DNA of 53,607 nt, taken from assembly GCA_010093605.1 (NCBI GenBank), contig MU004190.1, positions 1,240,001-1,293,607 of the forward strand, in the 5' to 3' direction. The position numbers and the translations under genes are program-made. The notes beneath the pieces are model-generated. The model saw only the letters and a list, made by a program, of their open reading frames with translations. It ran no database searches and was not told where the DNA came from. Positions 10,496-31,623 of the stretch are shown piece by piece. Position 1 is the stretch's first letter; each line of letters begins with the position of its first letter. The stretch is from Lophium mytilinum. Taxonomy: Eukaryota.

Positions 10496-11098
10496 TACGT
10501 ATGAAGGTACCTAGTCCATGCACCTACAAACTTAATTCCCCACCCACCCAAATAGTGAATCATCGGCAGGGGCCGAGGACTAGCAAAGCTCGGCCGACTA
10601 GACTAAAGAAGCCCGTGGTCGGGGCTAGGGAAGGACGGAAGCTCGTTATCTGGTACCGCGCGGGCGGGCCGGGTAGCCTATTGTTGTCAGGGCGCACCCA
10701 GGCGTAAAGAGGCGAGGAGAGGGGCGAGGGCGGTAGGGCCGATAGGAGGAATTGGATCAGGGTGCGGCAAGGGAGGGTCGGGATGGTCCGTCCGGTGGTG
10801 TGAAGGAGGCGAGGATGGAAGTTTAGGTATTTTGGGGAGGTGGCCAAAACTTCATAGTACGTTGATTTTATGCATGTGTAGAGTAGAGCGCGTTCAAATA
10901 GTCATAAAAAAGGCGGATATATTGCGATCCCATCTCAATCCCCCTTCTATATCTCTCACCATGTCGTCGTGTATTAAATAGAATTTATAATGCATTGCAA
11001 GGAAAACTCAAACGCCCGGCCCAAAATTCCGCAGAATAAGCCGCCCTGGATATCAATCATGCACGCACAACATCACACTCCAACCCCCTTTCCCTAAC

Positions 11099-12473
11099 CT
11101 AAAAGTCAGGCTTGTCCATCGACCGCCGACTACTCCGCTCCTCATCCTGACTCCGTCTCTCACTCGCCACCGTTACCGTGACCTCTTGCAGAATTCCGTG
11201 GTAGCTCTGGTAGATATGCTCCTGGCTCTCATTGTCCTCGGGCCCGGTCGCCCGCACGCTCGTGGTCCCATTGGTCGCCCACTTCGACCCCAATCCAGTC
11301 CCAGTCCCGCTCTTGTTGTGCGAAATACTCCCGAGAGGTACGGAATTTTGCTTCGTCTGACGAGATTTGGAGCCGTACTTTGTAGGGCCAGATACGTTGT
11401 AAGAAGAGCCGAGGAGGGTGGGGACGTAGCGGCGGAGGAAGGCCTTGAAGGCGGGCGCGCAGGCGATGAAGATGGCCGTATGGAGTTCCACTATGGACCA
11501 ATTGAGGGGGCTGACGAGGTCTACGGTGCCATTGGTGGAGTGGATTATGGTTTTGAGGGTTGCGAGGCGAACGATGCTGGCAACGCAGACTCTGAGGGGA
11601 AGTTAGTACCAGTTTTCATTAAGAGATAGAGATGATTGGGAGTAAAATGCAGTGAGTGCAAGGGAGTATTGAACGTTGGAAGGATCAAGGACGGTGGGGC
11701 AACGTACAAACTACCAAGTCCAAAGAGCCCGCACAAGCTCATACGCTGTCGGATGGGCATGTGCAAGCCCCAGAGGAACCGCATCGGTAGCAGAAGAATG
11801 CCAACGTCCGTGAGGATGTTCAAAGCCGCGTTGGCGTAGTAGAAATCGATTACTTGGAAACAATGGCCCTTTTGGGTCGGGTTCCAAAGCATAGAAAGCG
11901 GTATACATTGGACAAGTACGGCCACGATACTGCCGATTCCGAAGCCGGTAACGACAAACATGGCTACGTACACCATGATGAGAAAGCTCCGTTCTGGTGA
12001 GAGTCGGGTGTAGAAAGTCAAGAGCGAAAGTTTGATGAACATAGCAGAGAAGCTGTACGACACCGAAGATGTGAGGGTGAGCTAAACGTCGTCAGTGTGT
12101 TGGACTGTGATACTAGCCACGGAGTATACCTTCTGATAGGGTGCGACTTCTTGAGGCAACTGGTCTTTAATGGGGCTTCCCAGGCCATACTTGATCGCTT
12201 CAAATTGTCAGCATATCAAGAGTCGTAAGGGATGCTAGAATGAATATACCTCCTATAGGAGTAGCTGAACAGAGGATTGCAAATATCTGAAGATATATAA
12301 GCCTGGATCACGTCGATTATGGCACAGAGACATACCGCTGCAATGCATATCAAGTAGTCGTCAGGCCCCATGTTCTTCATAAAGACTAGTCGCGTAAAGA
12401 GCCTGCATGCAATACAAAGAACTGTGATCGACATGAACACCGCGGACAGGATGAGGAGCCCTTCTGCCGCCAT
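11099..12473 (-). CDS. PTH11-like (fungal rhodopsin-domain/SAT4 family) integral membrane protein, no CFEM domain
   Basis: Five-exon model starting MAAEGLLILSAVF...RLFTR...MGPDDYL. Motifs YGLG, IKLSLLTFYTRL, QCIPL..W.P..G.C, NILTDVGILLLP, F.LG...C.ASIVRL, WSIVELHTAIFIACAP. Ser/Thr-rich cytosolic tail. Confidence 0.88.
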
Positions 12474-13900
12474 CGTGAAGTGCAATGGGATCGTGGTAAG
12501 CGAAAGACGGCGATCAGAATGAATTGAGACAAAGAGTGAACAGAGCTGGCAGCAGGTCTACCCATATCAAGTACTTATCTGCAAGGAATGCATGCCATTA
12601 ATCGCGTCACCAGCGTCCCTTTCCTCTGGGACGTGCCAAGTGACATGGAAGCAAGAGATTTCGATGCTGGACCCTGTAATTAGGTTTAGGGAAGGCTACA
12701 TCCGGAATTTTAGGGTGCGCATCCAAGGGCTACTGGGTTCGGGGAAGACGGTTCCTCGTGTGCTCCATGGCATCGAAGCTCCCCTACGGCGTTGCAGCAA
12801 CGCCTATCCGAACCACGCAGGCGTGGCTGGAGCAGCTTGCTGTGATTTGAGTACGGTAACGAGGCGCCGGGGATGAAGAATGCATACTTTCGTCCGCCAG
12901 CAGTGGGCGTCGCTAGTGCAGTACAGGATGCCACTGCTACGGCTCGTAGGACCCTGTTGACCCCAGATCTCCCCTCTCTCCCCCAGACATGACTAGCGCA
13001 TGGGTGCTCTGCCGTGTGGGCGTTCTGGGGGCGCCCCGGAAAACCAATCCCAAGCGCACTCTGGCAAGTCGCTTGACTCGACAATCGGGCCGATCTTGCG
13101 CATTTACGGGAATAGCCGACAGTCTGTTCACGCCATGTGAAACGCTTTGCGCTCCTGCAACCCCTGTGCCTGATCCCGCGATTTGCAGTGATGTGAGCGT
13201 GGGTTGAGCGATTTGAACCGGAAAAAGGACTGATAGTCCACAACTTTGGCCACGGCTTGGGTGCCCTGTGCGGAATAGCGTGATACACAACAAAAGTCAA
13301 AAACTGCCCAGACGGCTCGTCTCACCTTACGCAAGTCTAGTCATACATACGAGCTGCTTTCAATATTTGCACTTTCCAAGCTCTTCACTGCCACAGCTCT
13401 GCTCAGCATTTCAACGCGGTAGAAACATGATCAAAAGAGGAAAAAGGCAGACGACGCATAATATCTGTATTCGTACACTAAACAACAGGAAAGATAAGGT
13501 ATATGGTGTATAACTCGTTGGTGCTAAGCATGGGGTCGTGAAAGCATGAGCTCAGAGCTCTGATGGCGAAGTGCGCATCAGTTTCATTGTTACGAAAGGA
13601 ACGGCCCGTTGAAAAGCTAAAGGTCCGCCAACGGCCTCAAACCGTTGATCGTCATGCGTTTTCGACGCGATGCGATCTTGCCAGAGATAGCCACCTCTTG
13701 ATGGCCGAAGCCGTCAAGGAGTATGGCGGAGCGCGGCGTGGTCCCTCTGAGTATGAGCCGAAATCTACGACGGTAGGGTGGCCCAGCGAAATTTCGGATC
13801 GCGCAATATGGTGAACCGACATCGGGGTCGAATCTTCCAAAGGAGCAACAGTGGCAGCACCAGGTCTGCCCTAAAGCTCAAATAAACCGGAAAAAAGTCT

Positions 13901-15181
13901 TCATACTAATACAACAAAATTTCGCCTCGGGGAAGCTGATGCCCAGGCGTCTTCGTGAATGCGAGCAACACCGACCCGTTCGGCCTTGCCGTCCTCCCAT
14001 TTGATTAAGAGGACGTTCAACAAAGCCCAGGGTCCGGCCTTGTATTCCCGCGGGTCGTAATCTACCACGTCTTCATTCCATAAGAATCGTTTGTTCTCCC
14101 AGATTGGTGTTCCTGGAGGATGTATAGTAGGTGTTTTCGATCGCTTTACAGTCGATATCGGCTCCTGAGAAATATTGCGCGAAAGAAGCGCAAACTCGTA
14201 TTTTGCACCAGCATCAAAGTTCGGCAGCGCATGCTCATAGTCCATTACAACTCCGCAATGCTTGCCCTTCGGGTTGACAAGGTGTGAACACGGTATTTGT
14301 CCCTTAGATCGCTTCAGCTGCTCGACCGCCCAACCACGGGCAGATATGGTTTGTGTCCAAAATTGCAGCGTTCCGGAATTCGCATCGACCTCGTCGCTGG
14401 GATCTGATAATGGTTCGTTGTATTCGGGGTATCCGATGCGAAGGTTTGGGTCTTGCGATCGACGGATAGTGTGGGGAGAGGATTCGGAGCCGATGTGAAA
14501 CTCTCGGATTTCTGACTTGAACCAGATTTTGGAATTGCCACCACGGAGATCGGGACAGTTCGTTGGGTCGAACGGGTAGTTCACTTGTCCCAACCAACCT
14601 GCCCAGCTCCAACTTGGAGAGTCATCGTTTCGGACGAGCGGTCCAGCTGGTGCCCAAAGAAGCGCAAGGTCCAGGACGGCTTCGGGAAGGCCATTACAGA
14701 GGTGACCTCCACAGTTATCGCTAATAGTTTCTAGGCGGTTGGAGAACTGTATGAGGGTCTCGACTCGCTCTGGTGTCTTGAAAAGGTTTTGGTCTGTGTA
14801 CATGGTGACTAGCTGGTTGTAACAGTCAAATCCTGGAAGCCACTCGCTGACTCCTTCGATAGTTGGGTCTGGCGTGGGGGTTTCCTGGATTTCATCGCTA
14901 TCCCGGTAGGTTTCACTGGACGTCTCGCTCGACCGCCGGGTGAAGGCCTCCTTTGCGCCGCTGATGGAAGCACTAGAGGAACTTCGCTTCAGCCGGTGGA
15001 AGACGCGCGCGATGGGGCTTTTGCTACGTCGCCTCTCGGGCTTGGAGTCAAGAACATCGAAGACGGGTGCGCCGGACTCGCTGATGGAGCCTTTCCGCTC
15101 TTCGAGGGACTTCTTCTGGCGATGGAATGGATGCGGTACCCAGGACGGGGTCAAGGTCCGTTCAGGGAGAGGAGTAGACAT
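13901..15181 (-). CDS. Hypothetical protein resembling the C-terminal region of HET-domain proteins (426 aa)
   Basis: Intronless ORF with a low-complexity N-terminus, then YNQLVTMYT, GLPEAVLDLALLW, PSWSWAGW and NVLLIKWEDGKAERVGVARI, which are typical of the region after PF06985 HET domains. Confidence 0.65.
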   Translation of the reverse strand: MSTPLPERTLTPSWVPHPFHRQKKSLEERKGSISESGAPVFDVLDSKPERRRSKSPIARVFHRLKRSSSSASISGAKEAFTRRSSETSSETYRDSDEIQETPTPDPTIEGVSEWLPGFDCYNQLVTMYTDQNLFKTPERVETLIQFSNRLETISDNCGGHLCNGLPEAVLDLALLWAPAGPLVRNDDSPSWSWAGWLGQVNYPFDPTNCPDLRGGNSKIWFKSEIREFHIGSESSPHTIRRSQDPNLRIGYPEYNEPLSDPSDEVDANSGTLQFWTQTISARGWAVEQLKRSKGQIPCSHLVNPKGKHCGVVMDYEHALPNFDAGAKYEFALLSRNISQEPISTVKRSKTPTIHPPGTPIWENKRFLWNEDVVDYDPREYKAGPWALLNVLLIKWEDGKAERVGVARIHEDAWASASPRRNFVVLV

Positions 15182-15753
15182 TACAGGAGCAGAAAGTGGT
15201 GAAAGATGAAAGAGAGTAGAGGACGATGAGAAGAGAAAGGGCGACGTAGATATGTTACCTGCGGATTCCCCGGCTCGAAAGGAAAGGAGTCAGAGTGGGC
15301 TATGCTTTCTGCGACTCTGCCTCAGCGTTGCGAGGCACTCTGCGGAGGTTGCGCGCGTATGGAGTGTGGCTGTGCTGGCGGATTATCGCACCTTGTACTG
15401 CCTTTGGCTGGCCACCCGCCCGGGGCCCATATTCCAGATGTACATGGACTGAGACCATGCGTAACGGCGCGTTCACTGGGGCGAATAAAGGGATACCGTA
15501 CCTGAATGAGGCCGCGTGATAGCAGTGAAGGCGCGTCCTCAGCTGGACTCTATAGAGGATCGCCCCTGTGCCCCAGCAAATTCCAATGCTAGCAGTGCCA
15601 AGCACGCCTCACCGCCCAAAATTGTCAGGGACCGACCACGTTTCGCTGCCACGAAACTCAACACCACGCTCACTCCACTGTAGCGCTTAACGACAGCCTC
15701 ACAATACTACCCTCTTCAGTCAACCAATTCACCGTGCACTCGAGACTGCACCC

Positions 15754-17258
15754 ATGGCCTCTCTGCAGCCCCCTTCCCTCCGACCCAAGGGCGGCAATGC
15801 CCCGTCGACCAAAGCAGTGATCTTGGTATTGCCATGTGAAGACACTTTGCAATATGATATTTCTAACACAGCCAGGTTGGCGGGCCTTCCAGAGGTACCC
15901 GCTTCAGGCCCCTGTCTATGGAATTGCCCAAGGTGAGTCAGGGCCTGGAACGCTGTTTTGGAAGCGGAAGTCCAAGTATTATCATGCTAACGTACCACAG
16001 CCGCTATTCCCCGTTGCCGGCCACCCCATAATCGAGCATTGCTTAGTCGCCGTCGCAAAGGTCACGGAAATCAAGGAGGTCTTCATAGTGGGCTACTATG
16101 ACGAGACTGTTTTCCGCGAGTTCATCAACTATGCTTCCAATGCCTTCCCCCAGCTCAGCATAAAATACCTCCGCGAATACCAGGCCCTGGGCACGGCAGG
16201 CGGCCTATACCACTTCAGAGATGTCATTCTAAAGGGAAGACCCGAGAGGTTCTTCGTGTTGAACGCTGACGTCTGCTGTTCATTCCCGCTGCTTGAAATG
16301 CTCAAGCTGTTCGAGGACAAGGAGGCAGAGGCCGTGATGCTAGGCACGCGTGTTGCCAACGAGGCCGCTTCCAACTTTGGATGCATCGTCTCTGACGCAC
16401 ACACCAAGCGAGTGCTCCATTATGTGGAGAAGCCCGAGTCACACATCTCCAACCTCATCAATTGCGGCGTATACCTGTTCTCCACCGAGTGCATTTTCCC
16501 CGCCATCCGCAGTGCTATCAAGCGCCGGACAGAACGCCCCCGATTGCTGTCCTACCCGTCCTCTGAGAACCTCGAGTCCTCCTTCTACCAGGGCGAAGAT
16601 GACGAGGACGAGGAGAAGGAGAACCAGGTCATTCGTCTCGAGCAAGACGTGCTCTCGGATATTGCCGACAGCAAAGAGTTTTTCGTACTGGAGACTAAGG
16701 ACTTCTGGCGCCAGATCAAGACTGCAGGCTCTGCGGTGCCTGCCAATGCCTTGTACCTAATGAAGGCTTTCCAGACCGGCTCAAAAGAACTCGCGACACC
16801 CTCCGCCAACATCATTCCTCCAGTCTTCATTCATCCCTCAGCTCACGTCGATCCGACTGCCAAGCTCGGCCCGAACGTCTCGATTGGCCCACGTGCTCAT
16901 ATCGGGGCTGGTGTTCGCATCAAGGAGTCTATCGTGTTGGAGGATGCCGAGATCAAGCACGACGCTTGCGTGCTGTACACGATCGTTGGCTGGCACAGCA
17001 AGATCGGCTGCTGGGCCCGCGTTGAGGGCACCCCGACGCCCATTACTAGCCACACTACCAGCATCATCAAAAATGGTGTTAAGGTCCAGAGCATCACAAT
17101 TCTAGGTAAAGAGTGCGGAGTCGGCGATGAGGTTCGCGTTCAGAACTGCGTCTGCCTGCCATACAAGGAATTGAAGAGGGTAGATTCACCCCTCATCCAC
17201 AATACTACGAATATTAGCTAACCAGGCCAAGGATGTCGCCAATGAAGTCATTATGTGA
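15754..17258 (+). CDS. Mannose-1-phosphate guanylyltransferase regulatory (alpha, GMPPA/Mpg2-like) subunit
   Basis: Spliced model TKAVIL|VGGPSRGTRFRPLSMELPK|PLFPVAGHP; LGTAGGLYHFRD; YVEKP; hexapeptide-repeat C-terminus; final exon DVANEVIM* ending at 17258. Confidence 0.92.
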
Positions 17259-18090: not shown

Positions 18091-18820
18091 ATGTCTGGCT
18101 ACGAAGGTATAGAGATCGCTTCTTCAATTTACCGTACTTTCTAATGCGCAAACACAGTCGAACACAACATCTCTACCGCCGAATCCAGGCCAGAAACTCG
18201 ACGCCCCAATCACCGCACCCGTCCCGATCTATCTACCTTTTATTCCACCCTCGATCTCGTCGACACCTCCGACCCAAATACCCACCACAATGTCCACGCC
18301 ATACCGCAGCCCGAAAATATGACCGCCGCATTTCGACTGCTCGCCAACGGCTACCAAATGATACAGGGCGATGGCGGCAGGGGCGCGGGCGGCGACGGCC
18401 CTCCCCTGCTACAGATGATGATAGAAAGCCTTATGCTCTCTGCAGACGACCCGCCACCAACCTTTCAGGGCGTGCCGGATAGTTTCCTAGATGAACTAGA
18501 GCGCGTGCCGAACAAGTCGCTGAAAAAGGATGATGAGTGTCCGATATGCTGCAATCCGTTTCTTGATGGTATGTGGACTTCTTGCGTAAACCGAGTTAGA
18601 AACAACTCCGGAGATACTGATGCTGTAGCGTACAGATGAGTTCCCGCTGGTAGTGCGCCTCCCGTGCCATGAGAACCACCGCTTCGACCTCGACTGCATA
18701 CGCCCGTGGCTGAAGCTCAACGATACCTGTCCGCTGGATCGCAAGCCTCTGATCAAGAAGAAGGAGCCGGTCAAGACTGATGATGACGAGGAGGAAGAGT
18801 GGGATGATCTATATGCTTGA
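18091..18820 (+). CDS. Small RING-H2 finger protein (yeast YBR062C-like putative E3 ligase)
   Basis: MSGYE|VEHN...; GVPDSFLDELERVP; CPICCNPFLD|DEFPLVVRLPCHENHRFDLDCIRPWLKLNDTCPLDR; acidic end EEEEWDDLYA*. Two GT-AG introns with branch sites. Confidence 0.88.
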
Positions 18821-19432
18821 AGCGGGGAACGGGGTTCTGCATATGACGGAGTTCGACGGCGGTGGGTTTTGATGATACTCGGACTGCTTGTCCCTAGCCA
18901 AGCAGTCACTACTATATTATACCAAGGTACCATTCCATGCATTCACAAATCTGAACTTTCTCCGTCCTCATTCCTATTCTGGGGCTCGTAAAAGTCGACT
19001 TTGACACATCGGACTATTCTTGAAGCACCTCCGGGCACATCATCCGCAGACCTTTGATAATCAAGCCTAGTCTGCAGGCTCCAGATCTTAAGACCATATC
19101 ACGTCTTCAAATCGCATTGCCGTCAAAAGCTCGCAAAAGCTACAAGGTTCTTCACTTTGAAGCACTCCTGGCCATTCCAAACTTGACACTTTGCTCGCCT
19201 GCGACTTAATACCTTATTGATAGAGCGTACACAGGCTAGCAAGGCTCGTAAAGCGAACAAATCATTCCATGATCTCGCCATCTACCACAATCAAGTCATT
19301 CACTCCATCCCTTCAAAGTCCCAATCTCCAAAGAATCTCAATCTCCAGTTACCAATCCTACATCTATCTACCTATTCACACTGTCCTCATCCCACAACGC
19401 CCACGGCCCTCCTCCCATCCTTTTGGGTGAAC

Positions 19433-19680
19433 TTAACGTCCATTATAAAAACACTTGTCACACTTAATCGTCCGCCTCGTCTCCTGGTTCCAGCGATGCG
19501 GGCAAGCCTGCATCGCAAAAGTACCTATACACATCATACTGGTCAGATATTACCTGTAAAGTAGAATGGCAACGGTGATTGAGACATGCTGCACGTACCT
19601 CTTCCTCGCATGTTCGGGCAGGGGTGATTTGCCCTCTCCTTGTGGCCGCAAGTCCATTTGATTGTTTCGATAGTGCACAT
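19433..19680 (-). CDS. MC-CGH microprotein A, 57 aa: MCTIETIKWTCGHKERANHPCPNMRGRGTFAMQACPHRWNQETRRTIKCDKCFYNGR
   Basis: Exons 19599-19680 and 19433-19524. Phase-1 intron GTACGT..CTGAC..TAG. Family Cys/His pattern restored on splicing. Confidence 0.8.
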
Positions 19681-19926
19681 CTTGAGGTTGGCAGTATTTG
19701 GTTACTTTGCTAAGTTTCGGTTCAAGGTTGGCCTTCGGGTAATTTCTGTGTCGAGTGTTGAAAGTTGCCGAGTTTGTTAAAGAGCTAAATATTGAGAAAG
19801 ATATCTAGAATTCCGAGCTCCTAAATACTCGCCCACAACGCCGAAGTGAAGTATTGAGACACTAAATACTCTGCTGGCTGCTTCGTTGGAGCGACCAAGT
19901 AGTTTCCACACGCGGTCATCAGTAAG

Positions 19927-20133
19927 TTATCGGCAAGCTGGGCACTTGTACGGGGACGCTATGTTGTTGGTCCATGTCCGAAGACAAAATAATCGAAATC
20001 TGTCTAATGAAGGGATCATGTGTCAACATCGGGTACCAGGAGAGTAATAGAGAAGCATACCTCGCCTAGCGCAGTACTCGTTCACACGCTGCTTGTGACC
20101 GCAGGTAAAGTTCTTGATTTCAATGATGCACAT
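19927..20133 (-). CDS. MC-CGH microprotein B, 49 aa: MCIIEIKNFTCGHKQRVNEYCARRDRFRLFCLRTWTNNIASPYKCPACR
   Basis: Exons 20061-20133 (73 nt) and 19927-20003. Intron GTATGC..TTGAC..TAG. Confidence 0.8.
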
Positions 20134-20349
20134 TATAGGTAGCATCTGACAGGGCTCTTTAAATGTGGGTCTTTTTGTAATTTCGGGTATTTGGAAAGTT
20201 GTTTTGAGAAAGCTGCTAACATAGACAGTAGGAGTCAACAAATTGACATCACCACCCACTGAGTTGGTCCAGCCAACTGGCCTTGACGCTTCTTCATCCA
20301 GGCCTTCACGGTAACTATGGCCCTCCTGAATCCCGTCTATCTAGCGCAT

Positions 20350-20602
20350 CTACCGGAACTCCCACGCTCCTTGATCGAATCGCCTTGGTCTGCAGTCACG
20401 ACACTGCACCGAACACCACCGTTCGCTTCTCTGGGTAAGGGCACACTGGCCCCCCTGGCCACCTATGGAAACAGAAAGGTACGAGTCAGACTGGGTACAA
20501 AGCTATCACGAGAAGCAAGAATTACTTACGGGGATCAGCACAAGGCTTAACCTTCGACTCATTGTGGCCGCAGCTGAATATGGAGACAAAAGTATGACAC
20601 AT
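20350..20602 (-). CDS. MC-CGH microprotein C, 61 aa: MCHTFVSIFSCGHNESKVKPCADPRGQGGQCALTQRSERWCSVQCRDCRPRRFDQGAWEFR
   Basis: Exons 20530-20602 (73 nt) and 20350-20462. Intron GTAAGT..CTGAC..TAG. Confidence 0.82.
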
Positions 20603-20776
20603 TTTGAGGAAGTTTTCACTAATGTGGATATCGAAGATGTCTATCGTAATTATGTTCAAGAGATATAGGTTAAAGAAACTCCGCAGGCCTTTATGAAAGA
20701 CTCCAACCTAGGAAGACACATCACAACCTGCCGCGTTGGCCCAGCCAACTAGCCTCGCCACGCCGCCTTCTCTCTC

Positions 20777-21014
20777 CTACCGGAAGAGCCAGCTCCCTTG
20801 GTCATATCGATACCCTGAACACTGGGTGCAGCGTTCCCGATGCGCTACGCTGCCTATCGATACGCGACACCGCGGCCCACCTATGTAACCGTGAGAAATG
20901 GTCAAGCGTTGATATACGGCAAGCCACAAGAGAGGACTTACCAGGATCATTACAGGGCTGGCTCTTTGGCTGACGGTGGCCGCAGCCGAATATGTGGATG
21001 ATCGTTCCGCACAT
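20777..21014 (-). CDS. MC-CGH microprotein D, 58 aa: MCGTIIHIFGCGHRQPKSQPCNDPGGPRCRVSIGSVAHRERCTQCSGYRYDQGSWLFR
   Basis: Exons 20942-21014 (73 nt) and 20777-20880. Intron GTAAGT..TTGAC..TAG. Confidence 0.82.
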
Positions 21015-21242
21015 TTTGGTTAGTGTTTAAAAGCTCTTTAGTGTGAGTATAGTAATAATCGCAGTTGATGTTCAGAAGCGAGCAAGATTTAGATACTAAT
21101 GGAGATAGACAGGTCCACTCTAAATACTTGGACTGTTCGGACCTCCACGCATTATGGTACCTCACAACCCACTGGCTTTTGCGTTGGTGGTCCAGCCAAC
21201 TACCGCCAACTTTCGCTAACTATCACCGACATGGCATATTCA

Positions 21243-21492
21243 CTAGACCCGCCGACGCGGCCGTTCAAGAGGCGGCATTTGGCAACTGTTACAGCTATGC
21301 GGAAGTCGTTTGCTGCCTCCAATAGGGAATCCGGGGCACCGTCGCCCGCCTAGCGAGGAAGAATGATCAGTCGACCTTGGGCAAATGAAGATGGATCAAC
21401 GCAAGGTCTCAATACTCACGAGGTTCGGCGCACTGTTGAGGTATCTGCTGCTGGTGGCCGCAGCTGAATATGTGGATGATCACTCGGCACAT
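21243..21492 (-). CDS. MC-CGH microprotein E, 59 aa: MCRVIIHIFSCGHQQQIPQQCAEPRGRRCPGFPIGGSKRLPHSCNSCQMPPLERPRRRV
   Basis: Exons 21420-21492 (73 nt) and 21243-21349. Intron GTGAGT..CTGAT..TAG. Confidence 0.82.
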
Positions 21493-22052
21493 GTTGAGCG
21501 TTGGTCAAGGACGCTTGAAAAGTGGTTATCAAGATTGGTGTTGTGAAGCCGAGTCTTGAAGAGAGTCTTCGAAAGGCGGTCGTTGGAGTTATATCCTGAT
21601 GCGGGAGTCGAAGATATAGTAATTAGATGTACGAACTCCAAATTCCACGTCTCAGACAGCTCATCGCCTACTTTGTTCCGCCCGTTTGCGTCACTTATCC
21701 ACCAGCTCTGTAGTTTTACCGATAGTAGCCATTGCCCATCCCCCCGCCACCCTTTCCTATTGGCACGGTGATATCGAATACACGATGCTGAGCTCATATG
21801 TTACATTTCTAGGTGTGCTCTTTCTACTCGGAGGCAATACGAGTTTCATGACACTATGGAGGGGGCCCCGAAACGTTTTGAGAGTCAGATACAAATCTCA
21901 AAATTGTGGTCTAACTCGTTGCTGGATAGTAAAAAAACGCTCTACCGAGTGACCTTTTACGCCGACTCCTCCCAACTCTCGAGACGCCTCACTCCCTAAA
22001 TCCCTATCATTCTAGTTCGACCCGCGAGTCGACCACTACATCTCCTCAGCCG

Positions 22053-22244
22053 CTACCGCCCATCTCGACAGCCAGGACATTCGTAGGGGTACCCTACCTG
22101 AGTTTGATACGCCGGTCCCTTGCAAAAGCAGATCCTATCTCTGTGCAGGGTTCCGCCTGTGAGATAATGATCGCTTCCGCACGTACTAGTGAGGCAATCG
22201 ACATGATGCCCGCAGGCGTATACGTGGATAATGACTTCACACAT
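22053..22244 (-). CDS. MC-CGH microprotein F (intronless), 63 aa: MCEVIIHVYACGHHVDCLTSTCGSDHYLTGGTLHRDRICFCKGPAYQTQVGYPYECPGCRDGR
   Basis: Single exon within track ORF 22053..22289, starting at the internal ATG at 22244. Same MC-x8-CGH...C...CxxC pattern. Confidence 0.8.
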   Translation of the reverse strand: MCEVIIHVYACGHHVDCLTSTCGSDHYLTGGTLHRDRICFCKGPAYQTQVGYPYECPGCRDGR

Positions 22245-22488
22245 CCCCGAGAATTTAGCGGAGAAGCTGGGCGAAGTGGTTAGTTGCAAATCAGCTATTA
22301 TGTTTGGAAGATAGACTCGTGGAAGTAAAGAAAATATATGAGGATTTGAAGGCTGTTATATGATTCAGAGATAGGAAGTCTACATGTTCCGTGCTACCCG
22401 CTAACCTCAGTATACTTCACAACCTGCTGGCTCCTCCGTCTATCTAGCTTACCAATACACCCGCACATGAACACGCTACCGCACTTCC

Positions 22489-22767
22489 TCATCCTGCCAA
22501 GCCAACGGGATCCTTTATCCTGAACTTCGACATGCGGCTTATAGCACAGGTATCGCACTTGTACGGATGTCGCGGCCCGGGTACAATAGGGCCCGGATGT
22601 CCTGGACACGGCGGCGCAATGCGATGAAAGCTTACTATGCATTAGAAAGATTTCGATTAGATTTAGGTCTAGAGTCTAGGCATGCAGCACTTACAGGGAT
22701 TAGCACACTGCTTTATAAGAAATTGGTGGTGGCCGCAGCTGTATGTATGAGCGAGTTGTTGGCACAT
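22489..22767 (-). CDS. MC-CGH microprotein G, 72 aa: MCQQLAHTYSCGHHQFLIKQCANPLSFHRIAPPCPGHPGPIVPGPRHPYKCDTCAISRMSKFRIKDPVGLAG
   Basis: Exons 22695-22767 (73 nt) and 22489-22634. Intron GTAAGT..CTAAT..TAG. Confidence 0.78.
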
Positions 22768-23006
22768 TGTGAGTCTAATCGGTTTGGCAGGAGATTCTGC
22801 GGGTTAGACACCGGGGAATTGCAAGTCGGTTTCTTTGAGCAGTGATATTGATGTAGGAAAGATGATGTCGTATTCAGGAAGCAGAAGTCTAAGATCTAAG
22901 ATCTGAATAGTGAAGTCGACCTGCGCCTCCAACTATTAAGCTACCTCACGACCTGCTGGCTTTTGAGTTAGTCTCAGTAGTTGGCACACTGTTACAACAG
23001 CTACAC

Positions 23007-23313
23007 CTACCTATTCTCTTCCTCCTTCTTCCTCATCTCCTCCATCACTTCATCCATCCGCACAAGCTGACAATTGGGACACTTGTGGGTCTTGGGAGGA
23101 TCAAAATAGATAATCGGATCCCAGGGCGCCGGCAATGGGCGACAGGGAGGCAGATCGCTGCGTTTATTGCCTAGCGAGTAGCAATTCCGGGTCAGTCTTT
23201 CTTTTCTTCTACTTAGGATAAACAACGTTGGGACACCTACCTATGTTGTCGCAGTTGACAATTTCTGGATACTCACACCCGCAGGTCCATTTCTTTTCGA
23301 TTCTCTTGCACAT
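23007..23313 (-). CDS. MC-CGC microprotein H, 78 aa: MCKRIEKKWTCGCEYPEIVNCDNIGNKRSDLPPCRPLPAPWDPIIYFDPPKTHKCPNCQLVRMDEVMEEMRKKEEENR
   Basis: Exons 23241-23313 (73 nt) and 23007-23170. Intron GTAGGT..CTGAC..TAG. TATA-like TATAAATA on the minus strand at ~23504-23511. Confidence 0.8.
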
Positions 23314-24023
23314 CCTGAAAAGTTGCGGCAAGAGTTGAATGAAGTTTCATCAAGTTCGTTTCGTAGGTCGAGGGTTTGCAGCTAGACTATCTGGTAAATG
23401 ATGGAGGCAAGATTGAAGGGATATTCGAGTAGTTTGTTTGATAAGGTCAGGGTTCGTTGCTGGAGCATGGGGAAAGTAGGTCTCTAGAATCGAAAGCAAG
23501 AGGTATTTATATGCCGCCTACTGACGAGGGAGCCAAGACAACGAGAAGGCGGGAGTCAAGGAGGCAAAACCTGAGGCTCAAGAGTCAAGCCGCACGTCGC
23601 ACTCTCAGAACGTTCAACATCCTGCTGCATCGAATCTATCATATAGCATGTCATGATCTCTCGTCCTACTACAGTCATTGCGCTCGAAGGCCTACGCTTC
23701 CCGGAGAGGGTGATTCAATACGTGAGCGCAAGTCGTAGAGTGAACCGCGCTCCGGAGGAGGACTCTTGACAGATACGAAGAAAGATTCACTTGCTACTTG
23801 AATGACTGTTGATGTCGCCGAAGACCAACCCCCCTCATTGAGTAAGCATCAACATGTCAAGAATTTGGGATATCGGGTTGATGCCTGAAAACTGACGTGA
23901 AATTCATGTATTCAGTACCTCAGTACCCCCACCTTACTACAGCGATCCAGCTAGATGCGTATACGCTCACCTTCACTGCCATGCTACTACCTCAAGTACC
24001 GACCAGGACCTAGTTCCTCCGGC

Positions 24024-25991
<1,968 letters not shown>

Positions 25992-31383: not shown

Positions 31384-31623
31384 NNNNNNNNNNNNNNNNN
31401 NNNNNNNNNNNNNNNNNNNNNNNNNNNNNNNNNNNNNNNNNNNNNNNNNNNNNNNNNNNNNNNNNNNNNNNNNNNNNNNNNNNNNNNNNNNNNNNNNNNN
31501 NNNNNNNNNNNNNNNNNNNNNNNNNNNNNNNNNNNNNNNNNNNNNNNNNNNNNNNNNNNNNNNNNNNNNNNNNNNNNNNNNNNNNNNNNNNNNNNNNNNN
31601 NNNNNNNNNNNNNNNNNNNNNNA
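31384..31623. other. Assembly gap (N run)
   Basis: Run of about 240 n. Confidence 0.99.

Follow-up and report, generated by a model that had tools for sequence, protein, structure and literature searches.

A stretch of 53,607 bases from the filamentous ascomycete Lophium mytilinum (GenBank assembly GCA_010093605.1, contig MU004190.1, positions 1,240,001 to 1,293,607 of the forward strand; hereafter the window, numbered from its first letter) hosts an array of eight co-oriented gene models on the minus strand at 19433-23313. We consider it probable that these represent an old and lineage-restricted tandem family of eight real genes encoding small, non-secreted, and mostly basic proteins, each built on a metal-binding (likely zinc) module of six cysteines and one histidine (Cys6His). 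One such module per protein, comprising approximately 45 residues with the pattern M-C-x8-C-G-H-x7-C ... C ... C-x2-C, would form the common core. The case is carried by the anatomy of the genes, by the fixed Cys/His scaffold of their products, and by the intactness of the frames in duplicates that are saturated at silent sites.

Gene models of the array

The minus strand was read over 19200-23600 with every ATG-initiated open reading frame (ORF) listed, and the genes were lettered A to H in order of decreasing coordinate (the original prediction counted the opposite way, its "F" being gene C here). All eight ORFs start with ATG-TGY, followed by eight codons and then TGY-GGN-CAY, with TGT instead of CAY in A. 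The pattern ATG-TGY-N24-TGY-GGN-YRY matched eight times in the window, exclusively on the minus strand and within 19642-23313, compared with a chance expectation of 0.01; none of 100 shuffles reached this count. A purine is found at position -3 of the ATG in all eight copies.

Without splicing, the ORFs from these ATGs comprise 34, 32, 63, 27, 70 (wrong frame), 26, 36, and 45 amino acids (aa) for A to H, respectively. Enumeration by script of all GT..AG intervals of 40-130 nucleotides (nt) per gene showed that a single intron brings back the terminal CxxC in seven of the eight genes, all but the intronless gene C. The introns of A, B, D, E, F, G, and H are 70, 60, 70, 61, 67, 57, and 74 nt long, all in phase 1 and at the same position in every spliced copy, with exon 1 being 73 nt in six of them and 82 nt in H. 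Their donors read GTAGGT, GTAAGT (three times), GTGAGT, GTATGC, and GTACGT, every acceptor ends in TAG, and a CTGAC, CTAAT, CTGAT, or TTGAC motif precedes the acceptor in all seven. These donor, branch-type, and acceptor signals agree with the fungal intron consensus. The spliced products have 78, 72, 63, 59, 58, 61, 49, and 57 aa (A to H). The prediction of eight minus-strand genes of 49-78 aa, seven of which need an intron, was thereby confirmed both by the frequency of the start pattern and by the restoration of the CxxC in seven of the eight genes, all of which lie at the predicted places. The resulting gene models, all on the minus strand, are as follows.

23007..23313, minus strand: gene A, 78 aa; exon 1 23241-23313; intron 23171-23240 (70 nt, GTAGGT..TAG); exon 2 23007-23170 including the stop
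22489..22767, minus strand: gene B, 72 aa; exon 1 22695-22767; intron 22635-22694 (60 nt, GTAAGT..TAG); exon 2 22489-22634
22053..22244, minus strand: gene C, 63 aa; sole copy with an uninterrupted ORF; Cys22 replaces Cys21
21243..21492, minus strand: gene D, 59 aa; exon 1 21420-21492; intron 21350-21419 (70 nt, GTGAGT..TAG); exon 2 21243-21349
20777..21014, minus strand: gene E, 58 aa; exon 1 20942-21014; intron 20881-20941 (61 nt, GTAAGT..TAG); exon 2 20777-20880
20350..20602, minus strand: gene F, 61 aa; exon 1 20530-20602; intron 20463-20529 (67 nt, GTAAGT..TAG); exon 2 20350-20462
19927..20133, minus strand: gene G, 49 aa; exon 1 20061-20133; intron 20004-20060 (57 nt, GTATGC..TAG); exon 2 19927-20003
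19433..19680, minus strand: gene H, 57 aa; exon 1 19599-19680 (82 nt); intron 19525-19598 (74 nt, GTACGT..TAG); exon 2 19433-19524

Gene C carries additional residues exactly at the site of the other copies' intron. The in-frame 48-nt stretch at 22139-22186 on the minus strand has intron-like ends (GTACGT..AG) and may represent a retained, optionally retained, or exonised intron. In gene G, an in-frame ATG at 20145, located 12 nt upstream of the family-type start, would add four residues; a C at its position -3 gives it a weak context.

Conserved scaffold and divergence of the products

Alignment of the eight products revealed M1, C2, C11, G12, an aromatic residue at position 9, and both cysteines of the terminal CxxC to be present in all of them. 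H13 is kept in seven, with a Cys in its place in gene A, the product of which also has a long, charged tail, and C21 is likewise kept in seven, being C22 in gene C. The middle Cys is located at positions 34, 34, 41, 29, 29, 31, 31, and 35 (A to H), and the terminal CxxC begins 13-21 positions past it. Against a profile of the seven spliced members, Cys22 of gene C aligns as Cys21 and its Cys41 as the middle Cys. Around this frame the products differ strongly: mean pairwise identity is 29% (range 18-41%) and drops to 16% without the eight near-invariant columns, in agreement with the originally predicted fixed scaffold of seven Cys/His positions in an otherwise variable sequence. Leave-one-out profiles, with E-values scaled to 1.84e9 sequences, retrieved six of the eight members at E <0.01 (B 1.3e-9, D 1.6e-8, H 2.8e-6, E 2.8e-4, G 4.7e-4, and F 2.9e-3), while A and C scored 2.2 and 32, respectively.

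At the nucleotide level, the uncorrected synonymous difference between copies averages 0.76, i.e., it is saturated, compared with 0.50 for non-synonymous sites (28 pairs), and the non-synonymous proportion of differences (pN) is below the synonymous one (pS) in all 28 pairs. Since the silent sites are saturated, the duplicates must be old. Starts, frames, splice signals, and ligands are nevertheless intact in all eight copies, which in view of this age argues for selection on the minus-strand protein. The codons of the kept cysteines vary between TGC and TGT among the copies. Between the paralogues, the Cys/His codons are strongly conserved.

Six of the eight products have a net charge of +4 to +8. 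By inspection only, and without a predictor, no product showed a hydrophobic stretch of more than six residues before Cys11; to this extent the products agree with the original statement that a signal peptide is absent.

Relatives and comparison with known systems

To search for relatives, a profile (A6) was patched from exon pieces of the window; MAFFT mis-registers Cys21 with the middle Cys in it, and the profile is weaker than a full-length one would ideally be. Among 1.84 billion representative proteins, three matched at E <=0.001. Two of them, P0001 and P0002, are repetitive proteins scoring by summed repeats (13 and 5 stretches, respectively) and were rejected as relatives. The only credible relative is P0003, a hypothetical protein of 143 aa from a Joint Genome Institute (JGI) source with an E-value of 6.7e-4 on the whole library. 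It starts with M-C-x8-C-G-H-x7-C-x4-C-x13-C-x2-C, hosting the full seven-ligand pattern within residues 1-43, and carries a second C-G-H ... CxxC module at residues 88-141; the two modules score 28.2 and 13.7 bits against the profile of the seven spliced members. Because P0003 carries the module twice, the latter can be regarded as a discrete domain. Unlike the array products, P0003 combines two modules in a single chain, with a predicted helix connecting them. It is the lone member of its cluster, encoded on a single contig of 3743 nt, and a word-index search with it returned only itself. In the same type of search, covering 5.8 billion proteins, neither gene C nor the N-terminal alignment had a match, and metagenome scans revealed no relative. 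At the scale of the profile search, the true members A and C would themselves score E >1; therefore, the small number of matches is not evidence of rarity of the family.

When gene C, P0003, and the exon-1 and exon-2 pieces of the seven spliced genes were compared with Pfam, no model reached its cut-off. Below the cut-off, DUF7682 (PF24730) scored best with 14 bits against a gathering cut-off of 27 (E 0.036), for exon 1 of gene G only, the other seven N-terminal pieces being without a match. The sole matches to RING models (zf-C3HC4, zf-RING_2, zf-rbx1) came from exon 2 of gene G, with scores of 14.9 bits vs a cut-off of 21, 14.1 vs 31, and 15.8 vs 25. A profile search of the PDB sequences had 1mey as its best match (E 0.038), restricted to a C2H2-like P-Y-K-C-P-x-C knuckle, and neither gene C alone nor P0003 alone matched any of these sequences. 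Literature searches, read as titles and abstract openings, gave no account of such a family, and no paper matched DUF7682. With Pfam scores below the cut-offs and PDB sequence searches without a match, the original view that no characterised family can be assigned still stands. No known family accepts the products, while small Cys/His metal-binding modules and diverged tandem arrays of tiny Cys-rich genes are both known kinds.

Comparison with individual families specifies where the likeness ends. RING zinc fingers (zf-C3HC4, zf-RING_2) follow the consensus C-x2-C ... C-x-H-x2-3-C-x2-C ... C-x2-C. Like the RING second site, the array has a C-x-H pair and, further on, a terminal C-P-x-C knuckle; a Trp is frequently located between the two. 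In contrast, the N-terminal and central CxxC pairs of RING are each represented by a single Cys in the array, so that seven ligands face eight and the only conserved CxxC is C-terminal; the spacing from the His to the next Cys is 7 instead of the 2-3 of the RING consensus. Among the Pfam models, only DUF7682, annotated as a "zinc-binding domain of unknown function", aligns with the N-terminal x-F-x-C-G-H-x of the array, in one of the eight members and over a short region (residues 7-14 of gene G exon 1 vs profile positions 3-10 of 23). C2H2 fingers, in which C-x2-4-C is followed approximately 12 residues on by H-x3-5-H, have a linker and knuckle similar to the C-terminal P-Y-K-C-P-x-C of the array. 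No array member has a His pair after its CxxC, and the tails beyond it comprise about 10-20 residues in A, B, D, E, and F and 1-5 in C, G, and H. As these tails are short or free of a His pair, the C2H2 fold cannot form in the array products. Twin Cx9C (CHCH) proteins have two C-x9-C pairs; the array fits with C11-x9-C21 only, its second pair being the middle Cys-x12-20-C, and a complex I CHCH subunit appeared in the PDB sequence search at E 0.28.

Structure prediction with AlphaFold2 gave a mean predicted local distance difference test score (pLDDT) of 44 for gene C alone and of 50.5 for P0003 with a shallow alignment, neither being fit for fold comparison. Within the P0003 model, the sole moderately confident parts of the modules (pLDDT ~70) are the beta strands 4-11, 91-98, and 103-109, which flank the C-G-H turn, and the linker appears as a helix at 45-63. 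In this low-confidence model, the strands would be loosely compatible with a knuckle at a hairpin turn.

A proposed model for the Cys6His module

What we infer from here on concerns translation, zinc binding, ligand pairing, and a function as binders. The module may bind zinc, which would make the products proteins of the zinc-knuckle type. By analogy to site 2 of RING domains, the C11-x-H13 turn, following a beta strand, could form one Cys3His site together with the terminal CxxC knuckle. Cys2, Cys21, and the middle Cys would then provide a second site of three ligands, possibly completed by a variable residue, water, or a partner module; such a two-zinc fold is suggested by ligand counting alone. 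With its two modules, P0003 suggests that the modules may act pairwise. Loops and tails, diverged almost to randomness, could serve as specificity surfaces, with each copy having its own target, and the eight proteins might thus form a panel of small products that bind proteins or nucleic acids. The originally proposed roles as adaptors, inhibitors, or components of allorecognition or toxin-antidote systems would be conjectural.

A more far-reaching version can be formulated as well. Here, the module would represent an undescribed Cys6His metal-binding fold and the array a combinatorial repertoire for intracellular recognition, the modules pairing via the incomplete three-Cys site, as hinted at by the two modules of P0003, and their hypervariable surfaces targeting proteins or nucleic acids in self/non-self or genome conflict; a spliced antisense RNA (see below) would keep the array off outside one particular life stage. 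We regard this version as a long shot.

A conserved block in the intergenic spacers

Besides the coding parts, the array shares a 23-nt block with the core CAGYRGGTNGTGANGT in five of its seven spacers:

22940-22962, minus strand: 23-nt block
22411-22433, minus strand: 23-nt block
21156-21178, minus strand: 23-nt block
20715-20737, minus strand: 23-nt block
20243-20265, minus strand: 23-nt block

These five occurrences are confined to the array and to the minus strand (chance expectation 0.01), and a position matrix scores 25-30 bits at its five training sites vs <=12.7 elsewhere. A 47-nt stretch around the block is 79% identical between A and D while silent coding sites are saturated, which places the block under constraint; its conservation exceeds that of most of the array's coding sequence. 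A GTTGG-N5-CCAAC palindrome lies ahead of the block in D, E, F, and G, and several spacers show a TATA-like T-A-T-T-T-A-G or A-T-A-A-A-G approximately 45 nt downstream of it. In Rfam, no match was found over 19000-23700.

The block lies 44-89 nt past the stops of A, B, D, E, and F and at the same time 113-176 nt ahead of the ATGs of B, C, E, F, and G. We lean toward a shared promoter element of the following copy; an element in the 3' untranslated region of the preceding copy fits the counts equally, with five of eight genes either way. Blocks upstream and downstream that are common to the copies suggest a common regulation.

Opposite-strand RNA and the non-coding alternative

The RNA data consisted of one public run (X1), read as contigs only, the RNA nature of which was guessed. 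It represents a single sample of a condition not given, its contigs drop rare forms, and it contains 35% of the sampled words of the window. Two of its contigs lie on the locus with zero mismatches. Contig 2 (1234 nt, depth 9.8) spans 20232-21607 while omitting 20479-20538 and 21019-21112, both of which start with GT and end with AG on the plus strand. A 12-nt loose end of this contig matches 20153-20164, which implies that 20165-20231 is a third GT..AG intron of the plus strand, its branch motif being GCTAAC; CTAAC-like branch motifs are carried by the introns of this RNA. Because of the three canonical introns, contig 2 is read as the complementary DNA of a plus-strand RNA that is antisense to F, E, and D:

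20153..21607, plus strand: spliced RNA; introns 20165-20231 (inferred from the loose end), 20479-20538, and 21019-21112; antisense to F, E, and D

The middle intron of this RNA, 20479-20538, mirrors that of gene F on the minus strand. Contig 1 (depth 506) runs continuously over 19300-19652 and extends toward a plus-strand RING-H2 gene at 18145-18820. It is most simply explained as the long 3' end of this gene, the mRNA of which would probably overlap gene H in antisense with a 3' end of ~0.8 kb. The RING-H2 gene converges on gene H. Genes A, B, C, and G are uncovered in X1, a gap that was not counted as evidence on their expression. Altogether, the best reading of these data is that the array genes are silent or low in the sampled transcriptome and are overlaid by a spliced antisense RNA.

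Several findings weigh against eight expressed zinc-binding proteins and have to be set against the conserved scaffold. None of the predicted minus-strand junctions was seen in the contigs of this one sample. Contig 2 retains the predicted introns of D and E, and contig 1 is unspliced across that of H, leaving the sense strand without RNA backing in X1. The splice junctions of the original prediction therefore did not materialise in this single RNA-like run, which shows splicing on the opposite strand instead. Codon-usage log-likelihoods, trained on six flanking ORFs, amount to -52 bits for the sense frames vs -46 bits for antisense frame 0, and gene C, being absent from the collection of 5.8 billion proteins, has been predicted by no gene caller on record. 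As for the metal, seven ligands fall short of two standard four-ligand sites, and zinc binding is without direct support, as neither structure model is usable. The missing junctions are weak evidence, weakening the claim of expression but not refuting it. A codon-usage score of this kind, as well as an open antisense frame, is expected for short Cys/His/Arg-rich products, although neither lends the sense genes support.

Some of these findings are the starting point of the strongest rival, according to which the locus product is non-coding: the spliced plus-strand RNA, or the repeat itself, would be what matters, and the minus-strand ORFs would be untranslated relics or by-products. The only RNA seen is indeed the plus-strand one with its canonical introns and branch sites, the codon usage of the sense strand is not gene-like, the antisense frame is free of stops in five of the eight copies, and the 23-nt block outdoes most of the coding sequence in conservation. 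However, the longest ATG-initiated ORF that the script listed in the plus-strand RNA comprises only 79 aa, and the introns of this RNA are not found at corresponding sites from unit to unit. Moreover, eight ORFs that kept their ATG, Cys/His codons, splice signals, and intron phase despite saturation are very unlikely without selection on a protein, and the module is shared by an unrelated database protein, P0003. We therefore judge a non-coding product of the locus to be unlikely and retain the interpretation as a family of eight protein-coding genes.

Exported peptides and metal buffers as less likely alternatives

Less plausible again is that the products are exported, either as unconventionally secreted, effector-like peptides or as precursors of processed peptides. 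Many families of small secreted Cys-rich fungal effectors share with the array the small size, the tandem arrangement, the divergence around a fixed Cys frame, and neighboring DNA affected by repeat-induced point mutation (RIP); a block of >27 kb that is AT-rich and shows strong RIP-type indices is located 3 kb away from the array. In contrast to these families, the array products have no obvious signal peptide: inspection revealed no hydrophobic segment at the N-terminus, residue 2 is already a Cys, and Cys2 and Cys11 occupy the place of a signal peptide. Repeated cores and dibasic processing sites are absent as well, the conserved His among the ligands points to metal binding rather than disulfides, and the neighbors (a GH15 glucoamylase, a nucleotidyl transferase, and the RING-H2 gene) are of housekeeping type and do not form a biosynthetic cluster.

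Least likely of all are metallothionein-like metal buffers amplified for dosage, as in the tandem amplification of the metallothionein CUP1 in yeast, since the array shares with metallothioneins the small size, the cysteines, the tandem arrangement, and the lack of an obvious signal peptide but not their very high Cys content and C-x-C and C-C clusters: its proteins have merely 6-8 Cys in 49-78 residues (8-13%) at fixed, dispersed spacing as in a folded domain, C-x-C and C-C runs are absent or rare, and copies with 18-41% identity do not represent dosage amplification.

Implications of a translated array

If translated, the array comprises eight genes that an ORF-based reading misses, and it would define a new family of small metal-binding domains without a relative in Pfam or PDB. 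It serves as an example of short, intron-split genes escaping annotation in fungi, and the family may be confined to a narrow lineage. The combination of a rigid ligand frame, a near-random remainder, and an antisense spliced RNA makes it a tractable case for the diversification and regulation of microproteins.

Genomic surroundings

The array is located inside a 16-kb island of normal GC content. The neighbors within the window include:

24024-25733: GH15+CBM20 glucoamylase, nearest solved relative 6frv
18145-18820, plus strand: RING-H2 gene with zf-rbx1 and zf-RING_2 matches
15821-17221: nucleotidyl transferase

A gene with a fungal rhodopsin domain is also found among the neighbors of the array, and no biosynthetic cluster is present among them. 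Three further long ORFs of the island have no Pfam match at E 0.001, namely 13901-15289 (minus strand, 462 aa), 12710-13321 (minus strand, 203 aa), and 10991-11629 (plus strand, 212 aa).

AT-rich blocks flank the island on both sides, at 6.2-10 kb and 26.5-53.6 kb, with a GC content of 0.28-0.31 and almost no ORFs. Their TpA/ApT values of 1.65-1.84 and (CpA+TpG)/(ApC+GpT) values of 0.25-0.32 are far past the usual RIP thresholds. The array itself, with corresponding values of 0.91 and 1.12, is not RIP-affected. A run of 249 N begins at 31384.

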